Source: Escherichia coli | GTDB lineage: Bacteria > Pseudomonadota > Gammaproteobacteria > Enterobacterales > Enterobacteriaceae | NCBI RefSeq assembly: GCF_030013595.1 | Contig: NZ_CP122769.1 | Reading direction: 5' to 3' (one strand) | Length of the DNA stretch: 64,000 bases | Part shown: positions 30,001 through 36,000 of the stretch, in pieces | How the letters are laid out: the number at the start of each line of letters is the position of its first letter | Numbering within the stretch: the first letter of the stretch is position 1 | Position numbers: made by a program

Positions 30001-33000
30001 AATTCTCCGAAGAATCAATTGTGGAAAACTTACCATTCCAGAATGAGAACTATCAACTTCCATCAGAACGTACCAAGGAAGCAATGGGCGGTGAAGAAAA
30101 TATGATAAAGGCCAGACAAGAAAATGCTCAGGCTATAAAAGAGGAAAATGTAGATTGTAGCTATTTACCTCGACCGGCCATATGTGAGGTAGGTTCAACT
30201 ACGCTGGATCCGGTTACGGGCAAGCAGTTGCCGAAATATTGAAGAAGGGGCCGTTAGGCCCCTTTTTTAATTACTTGGCTTTCAATGTTTTTTCTGGGAA
30301 GCCTTTTTTACCGTATTCACCGGTAAAGAGGTAATAATCTTTTCCGTTGATGGAGGCTGCAACACCCCCTGGAGTTGTTGTATTTGGGCTATCAGAACGG
30401 AAAATGATACCCGAAAAATCAGCGCTTGTTTCGTTTCCTTTAAATGGGATGAACACATAACGAATTACAGCGTAATCACCAGCGGGAAGGTTTAGCTGAG
30501 GAATTTCGGTTCCTGTTGCGGGGCGAATCGCCTGAAAGCTGTACATTGAATCTGTAGGGAAAACATCAGCATCAGGCTTAGAGGGCAGATCACAGGTACT
30601 CCATTTATTGACGACTGCCATATCAATTTTACATGTGGCCAGAGCTGCTTTCTGTTTTTCAGGGTTGTATCCAAATGAGGCCTGAGTTGCTTTTGTATGC
30701 TCAAAAACATACTTAGCTCCTTCACGTACCAAACTTTCATCATTGTAAGGCAATTTTTTTGGATTGGGGACGAACACTAGGTATTGATTGACCTGGATGT
30801 ATTCGGCGTCAGAAGAACTGTACAAAGAGCCGAGGCTCATGATCCCAAAACCTTTTAGACCGCCTGTTACGTAGCCCATCGAACTATTGATGAGATACTT
30901 AGAAAGAAAGTTGTCGGCATCCCCTCCAGGAGTAACCTCTTGCTCCTTAAAATTAACGTCGAAACCAGCAAACGAATAGGCATTCTTGGCGACAGAATCA
31001 TTTGCTTTAGCATGCCAGTACTGGCCGTGACTGTACGCATTCAGAGCGGTGCCTGGCGTAGTGCCGGTGTCACCGGCACAACCCGATAGGGAAAAACCAA
31101 TGACGACAGAAGAGACCAGAGATACTAAACGTAAAAGTTTCATTTAAAGCCCTTTTTGTAATGTCTTTTGGAGATGGAACCATTATTCCATAGTCACGCG
31201 TTTCACAAACAACCTGATTGCATAAAAAAGGAAAAAAAGTGATTTCCAGTAGAACCAGCAGTACACAAGAAAAGCGCTTTTATAAAAATGTATAATTATT
31301 AAAACGAAGTAATGAGGTTGAAATGGGTAAGCCAACAGAAGAGCAAAGACCTGTTATCGAGAATGCTAGCGCAAACAATATGGTGATAGCAGCGCCTGGA
31401 TCAGGCAAATCATTCACCATGATAGAAGCGGTTATATCGATTCTCAAAAAGTATCCATATGCAAGAATCGGGATGGTGACCTTTACTCGCGCTGCAACAA
31501 ACGCACTTGCAGCAAAGTTACAAAAGCGATTGAGCAAGAAGGATCTTGACCGGGTGCTGGTGGATACTTTTCACGGACTCGTTAAGAAGCAACTGGACAT
31601 GATTCGCTGGCCGGGAAAGATGTTGATAGGGCCAGCACAGAGATCTGTCATTCACCGGGCTTTGAAAGAATCCGGTGTAACGATGAAGTTTGCTGAAGCT
31701 GAATTCGTTATTGATGCTATCGGCAGAGAAATGGATACGGATGTGATTTCAGTTCGGCATAACAGACAACAGATCCATTTATTTAATACCTATCAGGCGT
31801 TATGCCAGAAAGACCATGTGGCGGACCTCAATGCTCTTTCAAAATTTGTTGTCGGTCAAATGCATTCGGGAAAAATGCGCACGTTAGATTTGACACATTT
31901 GATAGTAGACGAAGTTCAGGATACTGACTCTATACAATTCTCATGGATAGCATTGCATACAAGAGCTGGAGTCTATACGAGTATAGTTGGAGACGATGAT
32001 CAGGCCATCTACTCCTTCAGATCCTCAGGAGGAGTCAAAATATTTCAACAGTTTGAAAAACACTTCAGACCTAACATATTTTACTTAAACACATGCTTTA
32101 GGTGTGAACCTGAAATTTTAGAGGTGGCCGGAGCACTGATAGGAAAGAATGTTTACCGTTATGCCAAAGAGTTACGCTCGGCAAAAAAGGGAGGAGGAAA
32201 GGTCACTTTTCGTTCATATGTAGATATGGAGGAACAGATACAGGGTATTTTAAGCCTTATAAATCAGGATCCACATGGATGGGCAATTCTAAGCCGCAAT
32301 AATGCTCACTTGGATGAGCTAGAAAGTTTGATCGAACAGCCAGTAATTCGTTACGGAGGTAAATCATTCTGGGATGAAAAAGAAACAAGCGATGTGTTAA
32401 GCCTTATGGCCTTTTTCCGACAATCAAATGATCCTCGCTTAATGAAGAGAGTATTGGCATTGTTTGGAGAACAGGAATCAGTTTTGGATGATGTGGCATT
32501 GAGTATGAGAGGAAGAAAAGTTACTTTTGGCGACCTTGCCATCCCGGAGGACAGTTCTCTCGAAACAAAAACATTACATTCAAACTTCGTGCGCTTTACC
32601 CAGGAAAGTACTGATAAAGTTGAGATAGCAAAACGTTTCGCCAACCTTACGAAATGGATGGAATCGTCGTCAATCAAGATGAGGAGTAATAAAGGTACAG
32701 CAACCTTAACAAAAATTGCTTTAGACACTTGTAAACAGTGGGCAGAAAAGACTGGTTGGATGAATATGATCAATCGTGCTGCTGCAATGTCATTAGGCCC
32801 TAGGAAGAAGGACGAGGAATACAGCCCAGAGAAAGTAGTCCTATCAACCTTGCATGGTTCAAAGGGTCTTGAGTGGAATAAAGTAATAATAATGAGTTGT
32901 AATGCGGATCAGATACCAAGTAAAAGATCAGTTGGGGAGGAGGCAATAGAAGAAGAAAGACGTTTGCTTTATGTTGGATTTACGCGTGCAGAAAAGCAAC

Positions 33001-36000
33001 TTTTTGTAATGTGGTATGGTGACCCTTCTTTCTTTTTAAGAGAATGCAGTGAAGAAAAGATAAAAGAAGCAGCTAATATTCGAATTTCTCCAGTTTATAC
33101 AGAATAATTCGATATGGGCATTTACTTATGCTTAAAGCTATAGTATAAAAACAATGAGCTTAAATATCAGCTCCCAAATTTGAGTAACTTTGCTTAAAGT
33201 TACTTTCGCGTTAAGCGTTGATTTAGCCGTGAAAAGCGGCCAGCTTAAACAAGCTGTAAGACACCACCGGCAAAATGTCACCTTTGTCGCTGGTGCACTT
33301 CCCATGCCTGAAAAAGGCAATCTGAATTTACCAAACCGTAACTAATTTAGCTCCTCCTGGAGCTATTTTTGTTGCGTACTTCTAATGCCAGATAGTATAA
33401 ATCAGGCGGTTCATAGCTTACGGGAGATGAATGACAGGCTTTGCCTTCGTGTTGAAACAAAAAATTGTTTCTTCCTTCTTACTATATATAGGTGACCCCA
33501 AATGTCTAAAAATAAAGCTCGCAGTAAAGCCCTTCATCAAACCTTTAGTGAAATTATTCCAGAGATGGATAAGGCGCTAAACAAACAGCTCTTAGAAGTT
33601 CTGATGAAATATACAGAACGTGATAATGAACTGATTGTTATTTTGAATGAGGACGGCCCAAATATCATTGAACTTAAGTCTCTTAAGCCTGTGTCTTTGT
33701 TGGCCGAAAAGCTTTCTGCTTATTCAAGCTATTATCATGTGGATGTTGTGGAGCTCGTGGTCAAGAAAATTGATTTCGAAGGAGCTTATAAGCTTCTTAA
33801 AGCTTCCCCAGATGTACCACTTTTTAAAAGCTTAACTGAACTGGATAAATATCTTGTTGAGGAGTTTGAAAAATACGGATTAAATTCATTTCTTGACGTG
33901 GATAATCTGGATTACTCACTTGAAAAAGCCAGTGAACTCAAAAATGAGCAGTTAATAAATTGGGTTTCGGACATCATTTGCAAACGTGAAAAATTAACTT
34001 TACGTAAGCGTTTTGATGTCGCAGTAAAGGCCCACTACGAAAATGTAGAAAAAATGTATGATACCATTCGTCCGTTAATGAAAAAACTGGGTTTCCCAGA
34101 AGATCTCATGACGCACACCTTTAGTGAGTTAAGCGTTTTTGAAACTAAAGGATGGGACCATGCAATAAAATCGAAAATTGAGACTCTCGCTAAGCGTGAA
34201 ACTCAATATTTAGATGATGCGGCTAAAGCAGAGAATCGACGTCTTGTAACAGAGAAGTTGGAGAACTCTTTAGCGATTGCACCAACTAAACCAACAAGAA
34301 ATTGGTTACATATTGCCGGAATTGCCTGTTTGGTAGTCTGCACGTTCATGTATGTAACTAATAAATTTATTTAATCCTGTTAAGGGGGAACCCTAACGGG
34401 GCTTCTCTTTGAACAAATCGAGGAGCGGAAAATGTCATATCTTGAATATATCAATGAAGTAAAAGTGTCCGGGATAGTTATCAGTGCTGTGGAGAAAAAA
34501 ATGACTGACCAGAGTATAGGTTTGTTAATAAAGCTCAAAAATAGGATGAAGACAGAAGTTGATGGTGAAATCACTGAGAGAGAATTTTCAGTTCAAATCA
34601 AGGTGTCGCCTGAAATGTATTCAACCTGTTTCACTGGTATAAATCAGGGTGATGAGTTGATGGTCTCCGGTTATATTGTTGTCGATACTATTATGATTGA
34701 AGGGAGAGAACATCCTCTTGACTACATGAGAGTGGTAGCAACAAGTAAGTTGGCTCACATACCTAAACCTCTAAAAGGTTTTGGACAAAGTAGCTTTAAT
34801 CAGATCTGACATTAAACCCACCCTAAAGGGGAGAAATCCCTTCATGGGATTTCTCCTTTTGGAGTCCCCATGAAACAAAAATTTAGGGCTACTGCAATAA
34901 GTAGTAATCAACTTAGTTTTTTTTCTATACTCGATATAGATGAAGATGAAATAACGCAAATAGTTGATTCACCCAAAGAGCATTTAAATGATGCTTACAC
35001 GTCCGGATTAAACTTTAAATCAGAAGAAAGTAACATTTCTGAGATAAATTATGATTCTGAAAGGCGTGAAAATCACCTTTATGAAAAATCCAAATTACTT
35101 AAAAATCAGATTTTGCATACAATTAATTTTGCAGCAGAAACAGATTATCTATATACGGTTGAAGAATATAACCCAGATTTGGGTGGTCTGGTAATAGAAT
35201 GGACCCCTGAGGATGTGTATGTTGTTTTTCTATCCGCTATGGAAGAGTCTTTGGAAATCATTAAAGAACTAGTGTTGAGGAGAAAGTTATTCTTCAAAGA
35301 TGACAATGGTAATATCACAGTGAATCCACTTTTAGAAGCTGAAACACGGTGGTATATGTCAAAATCATTTGAATACACTTGTTTATCTCATGGACTTGAT
35401 GCATGTGAATTTAGAGCGGAATTAAAATCATGGCTCTATTATCATTCGCATCGTTCGATTAGTGAAAACACGAAATTAGCTGAATGCAGGAATGATGATG
35501 AAATCATTTTGCATGATTGCAATGACGATATGGGCTGGGACATCTTCTTTGATCAGGATTATTTAATGTCAGAAAAAAAACTGGCTGTTAAATGGACTGA
35601 CAGGGAAATTATGGATGTTTACATAAAAGCTTTTAAATCCACATTAGAGTTGTTTGACGAGCTTGTTTCATGTGATCTGTTAACTAAACGAAACGCTTTT
35701 GGCAAGTTAGAAATCAATCCAATATTCGAAAATCATTTTGAATGGATCATGTCTGAAGCTTTTGAAATAGTGGGAAATCATCTTGGTTATAATGTGCCTC
35801 AAATCAGGAAACTGATGGCAACTATTTGCCAAATGAATCTCAAATAAAATGCCACTGGCAAACATCTGCCAGAGGGCGGTGTTTGCATTTTACCGGAGTT
35901 AAAAATGTCTAATGCCGCTATGAAGTTAAATGAAACATCTTCTGATGCTTATGAAAAATTAGAAGCTCTTCTTTCCCCGGATGTTATAAAGTTAAAACAT

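Follow-up and report, generated by a model that had tools for sequence, protein, structure and literature searches.

A conserved, structured spacer between trhI and a cold-induced operon of IncHI plasmids, and a palindrome dispersed over the plasmid backbone

IncHI plasmids, among them R27, pHCM1, R478 and carriers of mcr-1 and NDM, are major vehicles of multidrug resistance, and their hallmark is a temperature-sensitive transfer that is under the control of TrhR/TrhY, HtdA and H-NS. Described systems with which the palindrome reported here may be compared are the KorB OB operators of the IncP plasmid RK2, which comprise 12 copies of a 13-bp palindrome (TTTAGCSGCTAAA), and the AcaCD and SetCD boxes of the IncC and SXT elements. 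Here we analyse a stretch of 64,000 nucleotides of Escherichia coli contig NZ_CP122769.1 (the window), which belongs to an IncHI2 plasmid, and in particular the spacer between the conjugal transfer helicase gene trhI and the operon that follows it. The next long open reading frame (ORF) after trhI starts at 33502, so the spacer covers 33108-33501, that is, 394 bp, in agreement with the ~390 bp given in the initial annotation of this stretch. This spacer is a real, selected regulatory element with a new conserved RNA structure, and one of its hairpins contains a palindrome, AAAGTWACTTT, that recurs over the plasmid backbone. The initial annotation missed both that the helicase already bears the name TrhI and that the palindrome is dispersed rather than unique to the spacer.

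By comparing IncHI2 with IncHI1 in 100-nt windows, the selection acting on the spacer may be seen. The nucleotide identity is 84-92% over 33238-33532, whereas it is 67-82% in trhI (65-78% for the flanks overall) and 64-77% in the downstream gene; the flanking proteins are 82% (TrhI) and 60% (downstream gene product) identical. Similarly, the spacer of the IncHI1 plasmid R27 is ~87% identical to that of the window. The spacer thus changes at a lower rate than either flanking gene, which implies that it is under selection. Pattern scans of public genomes and metagenomes added the lineages L035, L039, L044 and L028, giving 23 distinct spacer sequences in total. A core of 30 bp (33382-33411) is kept in every enterobacterial lineage examined, save two 1-nt insertions. 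In the Klebsiella-type plasmids the flanking proteins are 49% and 25% identical to those of the window, yet the core survives there as the intact block CTAATGCCAGA(N1-2)AGTATAAA(N0-1)TCAGGCGGTT. The core is unique in the window and in R27, and no copy was found at other promoters in the window (at up to 3 mismatches) or in R27. A Shewanella relative (L011) has the same gene order, and its post-helicase region carries neither the core nor the palindrome and shows no significant structure (z = -1.05). As far as seen, the element is therefore specific to enterobacterial IncHI plasmids. The initial annotation had made a function depend on conservation of the spacer palindromes; this was checked, and the structure of the spacer is clearly conserved, which favours function.

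The conserved structure is best described as RNA of the + strand. The whole spacer folds at -121.6 kcal/mol on this strand, against -86.8 +/- 5.0 kcal/mol for shuffled sequences (z = -6.95), and the z score of the minus strand is -2.9. The RNAalifold consensus of seven divergent HI-type sequences recovers a series of hairpins, with 95.9% of the cells paired in local helices, and separate folds give the same hairpin order in 14 of 14 representative sequences, with stem sequences that differ. Double-sided changes of base pairs number 14, compared with 3.4 +/- 1.5 in shuffles (none of 500 reaches 14) and 2-4 in slid controls. The covariance that the initial annotation suggested looking for is thus present, and the hairpins are kept via compensatory changes. 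A hand count in the pair tables of alignment A2 gave 46 G.U cells against a handful of A.C cells; these conserved G.U pairs, together with those of hairpin SL9 in the Klebsiella type (see below), favour + strand RNA over DNA. The Rfam search suggested at the same time returned no credible family for the spacer: no match reached the gathering threshold in the window, and only chance-level hits with E of at least 1 fell in 32900-33700. Four small ORFs, at 33190-33345 (51 aa, TTG start), 33427 (22 aa) and 33431-33580 (49 aa) and within SL5 (16 aa, ATG start), were rejected as coding. Small-ORF frames and start codons in the spacer are not kept across IncHI1, IncHI2 and the Klebsiella type, and in the Klebsiella type an ATG counterpart is missing for those at 33427 and 33431. 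In addition, two alternative pairings were set aside: a long-range hairpin of 33305-33340 with the core, which occurs in the minimum free energy (MFE) fold of IncHI2, is not conserved in IncHI1, and a pairing of SL0 with the arms of the terminator exists in IncHI1 and IncHI2 but is absent in L035 and L039.

Published expression data place a sharp boundary at this spacer, with trhI constitutive and the nine genes behind the spacer silent at 37 °C. The R27 record runs in the order R0001, R0002, spacer, trhI (R0003), R0004 and trhN, and the nine ORFs that follow the spacer in the window (33502-42193) are exactly the nine-gene cluster of R27; the operon corresponds to R0002, R0001, R0210 to R0204 and beyond. 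Its first gene (33502-34374, + strand, 290 aa) is the R0002 homologue by synteny, and the other products include a PriB-named OB-fold-like protein, a MoxR-type ATPase, DUF3150 and VWA proteins, and a primase-like Toprim protein. In the microarray of Gibert et al. (2020, PMC7366339), where the label in Table S3 is 'trhI, DNA helicase', R27 trhI gives 560 units at 25 °C and 494 units at 37 °C, and is 8.7-fold up in an htdA mutant at 25 °C. Across the spacer, R0002 gives 172 units at 25 °C and 19 units at 37 °C (9-fold), with a 61-fold rise in the htdA mutant; R0001 gives 1306 and 147 units, respectively, with a 19-fold rise; and R0210-R0204 are 5-23 times higher at 25 °C than at 37 °C, with rises of 19-53-fold (PMC7366339). 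These authors draw attention to 'a cluster of 9 genes, from R0204 to R0002' that is strongly induced in the cold and has no known function. In their htdA mutant the downstream genes reach 10,543-25,212 units, compared with 4,871 units for trhI, and 139 of the 181 expressed R27 genes are derepressed; the IS, tet, cit, parAB and muc genes are not (PMC7366339). The fall from 494 units for trhI to 19 units for R0002 at 37 °C points indirectly to efficient termination within the spacer, and the boundary as a whole implies that the spacer needs both a barrier to trhI transcription and a separately regulated initiation or read-through. In the literature searched, no transcription start site was found for this locus, and nothing on small RNAs (sRNAs) or single-stranded DNA (ssDNA) promoters of IncHI plasmids.

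Based on these results, we read the spacer as a regulatory junction, in which a terminator and two promoters stand between the constitutive trhI and a tightly controlled operon; our confidence in this reading is about even (roughly 0.5). All parts of the proposed layout lie on the + strand. The first promoter-like site, P1 (33121-33149), consists of TTTACT (33121-26), 17 bp and TATAAA (33144-49), with a predicted start at ~33156. It matches 9 of the 12 consensus positions, and the pattern TTTAC[AT]-N17-TATA[AC] is present in 22 of the 23 distinct spacers, the exception being L039 with TTTACA-17-TATACC by eye. In the Klebsiella type the -35 of P1 overlaps the last trhI codons. The structured non-coding RNA segment that follows (33156-33376, SL0-SL7, fold z -6.2) would be the P1 transcript and/or the 3' untranslated region (UTR) of trhI. 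It begins with SL0 (33156-73) and SL1 (33183-33204). SL1 is the inverted repeat of 8 bp to which the initial annotation had drawn attention; it is slightly longer than stated there, with a 9-bp perfect stem (33183-33191 and 33196-33204) and a 4-nt loop (AGTAACTTT-GCTT-AAAGTTACT). Its arms are conserved, the IncHI1 loop varies (ATA, or GACAAA with a 7-bp stem in pMB4528), and L035 carries a different hairpin at the SL1 place.

The further hairpins that the initial annotation mentioned are present as well, at 33207-17, 33226-40, 33241-56, 33262-95 and 33305-19, which we name SL2 to SL6. SL3 (GCCGU-GAAAA-GCGGC) adjoins SL4 (CAGCTT-AAAC-AAGCTG; jointly 33226-33256), whose stem exists as CAGCTT/AAGCTG, as CAGCCT/GGGCTG in L035 and as CAACCA/TGGTTG in L039; in the Klebsiella type two unrelated hairpins stand in the place of SL3 and SL4. 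SL5 is a 12-pair hairpin; L035, L039 and the Klebsiella type each have compensatory changes in it. Its apical GUCACCU is complementary to the Shine-Dalgarno (SD) sequence AGGUGAC downstream, a pairing that scores weakly (z -0.9 to -2.5). SL6 (TGCCT-GAAAA-AGGCA) has a C-G to U-A change in pHCM1-type IncHI1. Finally, SL7 (33337-33376) is a composite hairpin, whose outer stem CGTAAC/GTTGCG encloses an inner terminator hairpin and its T-run. This inner hairpin (33348-33371) is the terminator-like site that the initial annotation had placed here and that a scan also finds: TAGCTCC-TCCT-GGAGCTA (33348-33365), with 7 pairs (4 G-C) and a loop of 4, is followed by TTTTTG (TTTTTGTTG). Compensatory changes preserve the terminator stem in the types IncHI1, L035 and L039 (AAACTCC/GGAGTTT in L039); the corresponding position of the Klebsiella type has an A/U-only hairpin and no good U-tract. 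The outer stem covaries too (CGCAACA/TGTTGTG in L039, CGTAG/CTACG in the Klebsiella type); beyond the T-run, its 3' arm overlaps the -35 of the second promoter-like site.

This second site, P2 (33372-33411 with the invariant core), has a -35-like TTGCGT (33372-77) and a -10-like TATAAA (33396-33401), with a predicted start at ~33408. The TATAAA is invariant, and the TTGCGT at 18 bp is found in the HI types and is not conserved in the Klebsiella type. The core itself (33382-33411) reads CTAATGCCAGA-N-AGTATAAATCAGGCGGTT and is followed by a G-rich start region; its arms GCCAGA/TCAGGC could instead form an RNA hairpin, SL8 (33387-33407). Judged by eye against consensus sequences, sigma-54, sigma-28, RfaH ops (GGCGGTAG), IHF and T7-like readings of the core each fail at defining positions. 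The invariance of the core suggests that it may be recognized by a conserved host factor. The structured 5' UTR of the downstream operon (33409-33501) comprises SL9 (33409-33432), SL10 (33436-46), SL11 (33454-71), the SD AGGTGA (33490-95) and the ATG at 33502. The stem of SL9 is GUUCAU/AUGAAU or, in the Klebsiella type, GUUUGUUGCU/GGUGAUAAAC with 3-5 G.U among 10 pairs, and SL11 has compensatory changes at 3 of 6 pairs. Generic scans of 30900-33900 are not above shuffles, either for promoters (8 vs 7.0 +/- 2.9, with neither P1 nor P2 listed) or for terminators (3 vs 2.3 +/- 1.8), so the case for function rests on the comparative data. A minus-strand promoter candidate (TAGACA-16-TATAGT, 33508 to 33481, 10 of 12 positions) was set aside; it is kept in IncHI1 and IncHI2 only and not in L035, L039 or the Klebsiella type; it points antisense into the 5' UTR, within a 33-nt block that is invariant among IncHI1 and IncHI2.

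Some plasmids depart from this layout. Two natural variants break the element: in the Klebsiella plasmid OW969934.1 (L007) an insertion sequence (IS) with a 981-nt ORF (3701-4681) separates the core and SL9 from the start codon of the first gene of the operon, and in L018, owing to a deletion, the 5' UTR runs directly into the middle of this same gene. In the Shewanella xiamenensis plasmid pNUITM-VS2_1 (L011), the equivalent spacer (6813-8101) is 1.3 kb long and contains a duplicated module of ~110 bp. Behind each module comes an ORF, preceded by an SD, that encodes a hydrophobic peptide of ~30 aa (MEIAIIATLIIPALIINRVIVQPILWFAAR and MEIIIVVLMAIPALIINKVLVRPLLWIMAGR), and these peptides may possibly be small membrane peptides or toxins.

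Another finding concerns the sequence within SL1. The 3' arm of this hairpin contains AAAGTTACTTT (33196-33206), an instance of the pattern AAAGTWACTTT, whose extended consensus is (G)AAAAGTWACTTTT(C) with a length of 11-15 bp. The window holds 13 perfect copies, at 10608, 12682, 15649, 19735, 20918, 25994, 32517, 33196, 39647, 43392, 49093, 53285 and 56736, whereas 0.12 would be expected. In R27 (L047-L050) there are 42 copies, compared with 0-2 in Markov-3 simulations, and the next commonest 11-bp palindrome has 4. The copies follow the backbone: in the IncHI2 plasmid pSTM6-275, a Tra1 backbone segment of 50 kb carries 14 and the ter region carries 2, and none lies in ~35 kb of resistance DNA. 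The palindrome is equally dense in IncHI1 and Klebsiella-type loci and is absent from the Shewanella relative and from chance loci. When classified by hand from annotation tables, ~21 of the 42 copies in R27, 5 of the 13 in the window and 11 of the 14 in L046 are intergenic; the intergenic share of the plasmid, judged by eye from the same kind of tables, looks well below half. The intergenic copies include one in the Z-operon/parM region (12682), one upstream of trhP (20918), one 77 bp upstream of the trhR-like operon and one upstream of mobI. An internal promoter upstream of trhP was found by Gibert et al. (PMC7366339).

The palindrome also occurs inside genes. The copy within trhI (32517-32527, AAAGTTACTTT) lies at the same offset, ~1194-1197 nt from the start codon, in IncHI1 (R27, 2696) and in the Klebsiella-type trhI. 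On the other hand, every enterobacterial lineage has a copy in the spacer, but its position shifts: it sits in SL1 in IncHI1 and IncHI2, in the loop of SL5 in L035 and L039, and in the inner hairpin of SL7 in the Klebsiella type, so that its offset from P1 ranges from +41 to ~+150 among lineages. No other part of the spacer recurs elsewhere in R27. From this distribution, the palindrome is a candidate operator, probably that of a plasmid-wide regulator. A full-text search, outside which the subscription literature lay, gave no description of this sequence in a plasmid context, and the backbone-wide motif appears to be undescribed.

Which protein might bind it can be narrowed to a few candidates, namely TrhR, TrhY or HtdA, or an orphan KorB-like ParB helix-turn-helix (HTH) protein, the R0042 homologue. 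TrhR, TrhY and HtdA have no Pfam domain and no recognisable DNA-binding domain, and the literature searched describes no DNA target of the TrhR/TrhY-HtdA circuit. The R27 protein of R0042 type, named 'partition protein' (L047, 45191-46345), is a stand-alone ParB-HTH protein of 385 aa, which scores 22.6 bits, exactly the cut-off of PF17762. R0042 is among the highest-expressed genes of R27, with 6132 units at 25 °C (PMC7366339). The ParB of the window (8780-9784) likely has its centromere in a separate 249-bp tandem array that contains no copy of the palindrome.

If the spacer is a junction of the kind proposed, transcripts reading through from trhI and those from P1 would cross ~215 nt of hairpins (SL0-SL7) and would mostly stop at 33337-33376, and the composite terminator would insulate the operon from trhI transcription. 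P2, behind this terminator, would then drive the operon; its TATAAA -10 is accompanied by a poor -35, so dependence on an activator would be expected. The mRNA from P2 would begin with the SL9 hairpin and the structured 5' UTR. The palindrome would couple the operon to the regulon via a plasmid-wide regulator, either TrhR/TrhY-HtdA or the orphan ParB-like protein. In addition, RNA that escapes the terminator carries anti-SD sequences and may perhaps keep read-through transcripts untranslated. An operator for the downstream genes was one of the options raised by the initial annotation, and an operator or promoter in the spacer gains support from the R27 expression boundary, the invariant promoter-like core (33382-33411) and the plasmid-wide palindrome in the inverted repeat; the two promoters are predicted ones and the binding protein is a candidate.

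Several observations weigh against the junction. The TATAAA -10 of both P1 and P2 lacks the T at position 6, which holds for P1 in all sequences and for P2 in the Klebsiella type (TATAAAC) as well, and the generic scan lists neither site. The -35 of P2 is not conserved and coincides with the 3' arm of the covarying outer stem of SL7; this stem forms only in RNA that extends past the T-run, so a continuous leader is favoured. A sigma-70 promoter does not account for the invariance between the -35 and the -10 of P2, and the core arms GCCAGA/TCAGGC could be an RNA hairpin with a loop of 9-11 nt. SL7 of the Klebsiella type has no convincing intrinsic terminator, and nothing core-like was found at other HtdA-controlled promoters in the window or in R27. 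The duplex of GUCACCU with the SD is weak in the HI type (z -0.4 to -2.5), and the anti-SD pairing rests on one compensatory event. Finally, as noted above, the proteins of the HtdA circuit show no recognisable DNA-binding domain, and the binder of the palindrome is only a candidate.

The points on the -10 and -35 boxes, on the core and on the Klebsiella-type terminator support the strongest rival, a single long riboregulatory leader, which we regard as possible though clearly behind the junction. Here P1, together with read-through from trhI, would be the sole promoter, and the leader would extend for 350 nt from 33156 to the start codon and include SL0-SL11; SL7 would be a regulated attenuator, the core would be the SL8 hairpin or a site for pausing or antiterminator loading, and regulated read-through together with unmasking of the SD would set expression of the operon. 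The hairpins are indeed contiguous over the P2 site, as SL7 ends at 33376, SL8 covers 33387-33407 and SL9 starts at 33409, and the covarying outer stem of SL7 requires RNA beyond the T-run. The SL8 loop varies from 9 to 11 nt across lineages while its arms are fixed, which a hairpin tolerates better than a site bound by a dimer; the arms being invariant, however, no covariation stands behind this hairpin. All lineages retain P1. For Klebsiella-type plasmids the MFE fold (z -5.45) contains a closing helix between AUACCUUUA, at the 5' end of the P1 RNA, and the SD (UAAAGGUAU) ~290 nt downstream, and a single compensatory step is seen among L027, L017 and L033. The expression data tell against a single leader. 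R0002 is silent at 37 °C despite a near-consensus P1 and an expressed trhI, so that termination would need to exceed ~95%, and in the htdA mutant the downstream genes exceed trhI, which means that extra promoter activity is needed anyway. A bolder combination, in which the palindrome is the operator of the IncHI master circuit and the spacer encodes a riboregulatory leader or sRNA, family-wide and so far undescribed, by which the operon is gated, is put forward only tentatively, at about the same level as the single leader or slightly above it.

The next rival, a trans-acting sRNA, is compatible with the junction and considerably less probable than the single leader; we consider it doubtful. 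Such an sRNA of ~215 nt would run from P1 to SL7, share the terminator of trhI and pair with plasmid or host mRNAs, the translation start of the neighbouring operon being one example. The parts that it requires can be pointed to, namely a promoter, a structured body, the single-stranded conserved AAUUUACCAAAYCGUAAC (33325-33342), a hairpin and a U-run, with no conserved ORF, and the best duplexes with the neighbouring translation start always include the SD. However, the Klebsiella type and L035 have a weak U-tail or none, the covariation of the SL7 outer stem implies longer transcripts, Rfam holds no match, and target prediction is not significant, with a best z of ~-2.7 among 50 translation starts in the window. 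The small RNA proposed by the initial annotation stands in so far as a structured RNA of the + strand is concerned (compensatory changes and G.U pairs), and its action in trans is the doubtful part.

An origin-like or ssDNA-initiation site was also suggested initially and is very unlikely. Like Frpo or ssi signals, its hairpins would form in transferred or lagging-strand ssDNA, recruit a primase, a primosome or RNA polymerase, and serve the PriB-like and primase-like genes downstream. When the spacer is folded as DNA, both strands beat shuffles about equally (z -5.1 and -4.2), and the downstream operon encodes the PriB protein so named by JGI and the Toprim primase-like protein. The mobI/MobH relaxase region, however, where oriT is expected, is more than 120 kb away, and the spacer is not in a leading region: in pSTM6-275 (276 kb) the spacer is found at ~38 kb, and mobI with the MobH relaxase at ~192 kb; in R27 the respective positions are ~2 kb and ~108 kb. 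The spacer forms a series of 5-12-bp hairpins, not one long hairpin that rebuilds -35 and -10 boxes; its G.U (G.T) pairs are on the coding-sense strand, so the template strand, which a Frpo-type site needs, would have C.A mismatches; and the R27 expression boundary already explains a terminator and a promoter. A further explanation, that the spacer is merely a trhI 3' UTR with a terminator and owes its similarity to recent recombination, draws on the mosaic nature of IncHI plasmids and on the 83-89% identity of the nearby 34407-34897, but is likewise very unlikely, since the identity is 84-92% rather than near 100% and has no sharp recombination edges, the core and hairpin layout persist in far lineages with compensatory changes, and the R27 expression data require regulatory signals at the spacer.

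The gene upstream of the spacer is well defined. A megablast search with 31000-34500 matched 1,396 plasmid records, 1,113 of them at 99% identity or more; the latter are mostly plasmids of Escherichia, Salmonella and Enterobacter, typed as conjugative, MOBH and MPF_F. In the 100%-identical pSTM6-275, RefSeq annotates 31323-33107 (+ strand, 594 aa) as 'IncHI-type conjugal transfer helicase TrhI', a superfamily 1A (SF1A) UvrD/Rep-like protein. The full SF1 helicase of UvrD type that the initial annotation saw just past the transfer block is borne out by the ORF and its Pfam domains, PF00580 UvrD-helicase (9.3e-33), PF13361 UvrD_C (4.1e-32) and AAA_19 (5.5e-15), which together span the protein. 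Its remark that the helicase has no obvious partner gene is misleading, since in the annotation trhI closes the Tra2 transfer block of IncHI plasmids. TrhU and trhN genes and a divergent 290-aa gene precede it in pSTM6-275, and the order trhN, divergent lipoprotein gene, trhI is identical in pSTM6-275, pHCM1 and R27. More generally, the gene order around trhI is common to IncHI1, IncHI2, Klebsiella-type and Shewanella plasmids. The protein is 82-83% identical to IncHI1 TrhI (82% to R27 TrhI, R0003), 49-51% to the helicase of the Klebsiella IncHI1B/pNDM-MAR type and 30% to the helicase of the Shewanella plasmid. Its score of ~180 bits, compared with equivalog cut-offs of more than 900 for Rep, UvrD and PcrA, indicates that it is not an equivalog of these chromosomal helicases. 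As judged from sequence and synteny, it is the known gene trhI at its usual place, the IncHI2 orthologue of R27 trhI, with a helicase and transfer role assigned by annotation; the R27 protein has the same length class and the same SF1A UvrD/Rep domain set, with no difference of substance.

Within the downstream operon, the 125-aa protein (34432-34809) bears the JGI name 'primosomal replication protein N' and has no Pfam or PDB match, and its gene is the most conserved one nearby (83-89% nucleotide identity between IncHI1 and IncHI2). The primase-like protein with DUF7146 and Toprim domains is encoded at 40889-42193, and a Tus-like Ter-binding protein further on, at 52784-53764. An IS21-type pair (an istA-like integrase of 390 aa and an IstB ATPase of 266 aa; 45762-47731) lies inside the same-strand array downstream of the spacer.

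Some other features of the window are worth recording. The 249-bp tandem array (4060-7150) has 12.6 copies of its unit with 73% matches and lies in an ORF-poor gap of 4.3 kb between trhC (511-3192) and parA/parB (7530-9784); it may be the Par1 centromere or a region of incompatibility repeats. Compared to pSTM6-275, trhW is split by an IS66-family element of 2.7 kb (22550-25250; ORFs of 216, 115 and 523 aa; TnpB_IS66, DDE_Tnp_IS66), and as trhW is a pilus-assembly gene, the plasmid of the window may be transfer-defective. The gene rsp for the Big-domain protein RSP (16532-20835) is present as two ORFs in different frames, 16532-18481 and 18487-20835, but is intact with 4305 nt in pSTM6-275. 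There is one indel relative to pSTM6-275 somewhere in 16289-22549, and the split of rsp could be a frameshift or a sequencing error.

In general, the analysis offers one palindrome that marks the backbone ~40 times, in many promoter regions, and a control region in which candidate promoters, a terminator and conserved hairpins precede the operon under the strongest regulation in IncHI plasmids. It also offers an invariant 30-bp sequence beside proteins that have diverged to 25-50% identity, which implies that a conserved machinery, probably that of the host, recognizes it. If the combined operator and leader reading were true, it would explain how mutation of a single regulator derepresses three quarters of the R27 genes, and it would provide both a DNA and an RNA handle on thermosensitive conjugation.

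Compared with known systems, the spacer resembles Frpo and ssi signals in being a hairpin-rich non-coding segment by ssDNA-binding-like and primase-like genes, but differs in its distance from oriT, its multiple short hairpins, its sense-strand wobble pairs and its boxes, which are not rebuilt in a stem. There is also a likeness to 3'-UTR sRNAs of the DapZ/MicL type and to the lambda PR' leader (6S RNA before tR'): as in those systems, a promoter lies at or in the 3' end of the upstream ORF, and a structured transcript of ~200 nt, sharing its terminator with the upstream mRNA ahead of a long regulated operon, is predicted. The spacer differs from them in that it belongs to no Rfam family and in that a covarying outer stem, which spans the U-run, encloses its terminator. 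As for the palindrome, the KorB OB operators and the AcaCD and SetCD boxes likewise spread one palindrome across a conjugative backbone, over promoters and genes, and are absent from acquired DNA. AAAGTWACTTT differs from them in its unrelated sequence, its larger number of copies (42 in 180 kb), its variable distance from promoters and its binders, which are candidates only. The parallel with KorB nevertheless has a counterpart in IncHI itself, where mutation of htdA alters the expression of most backbone genes.

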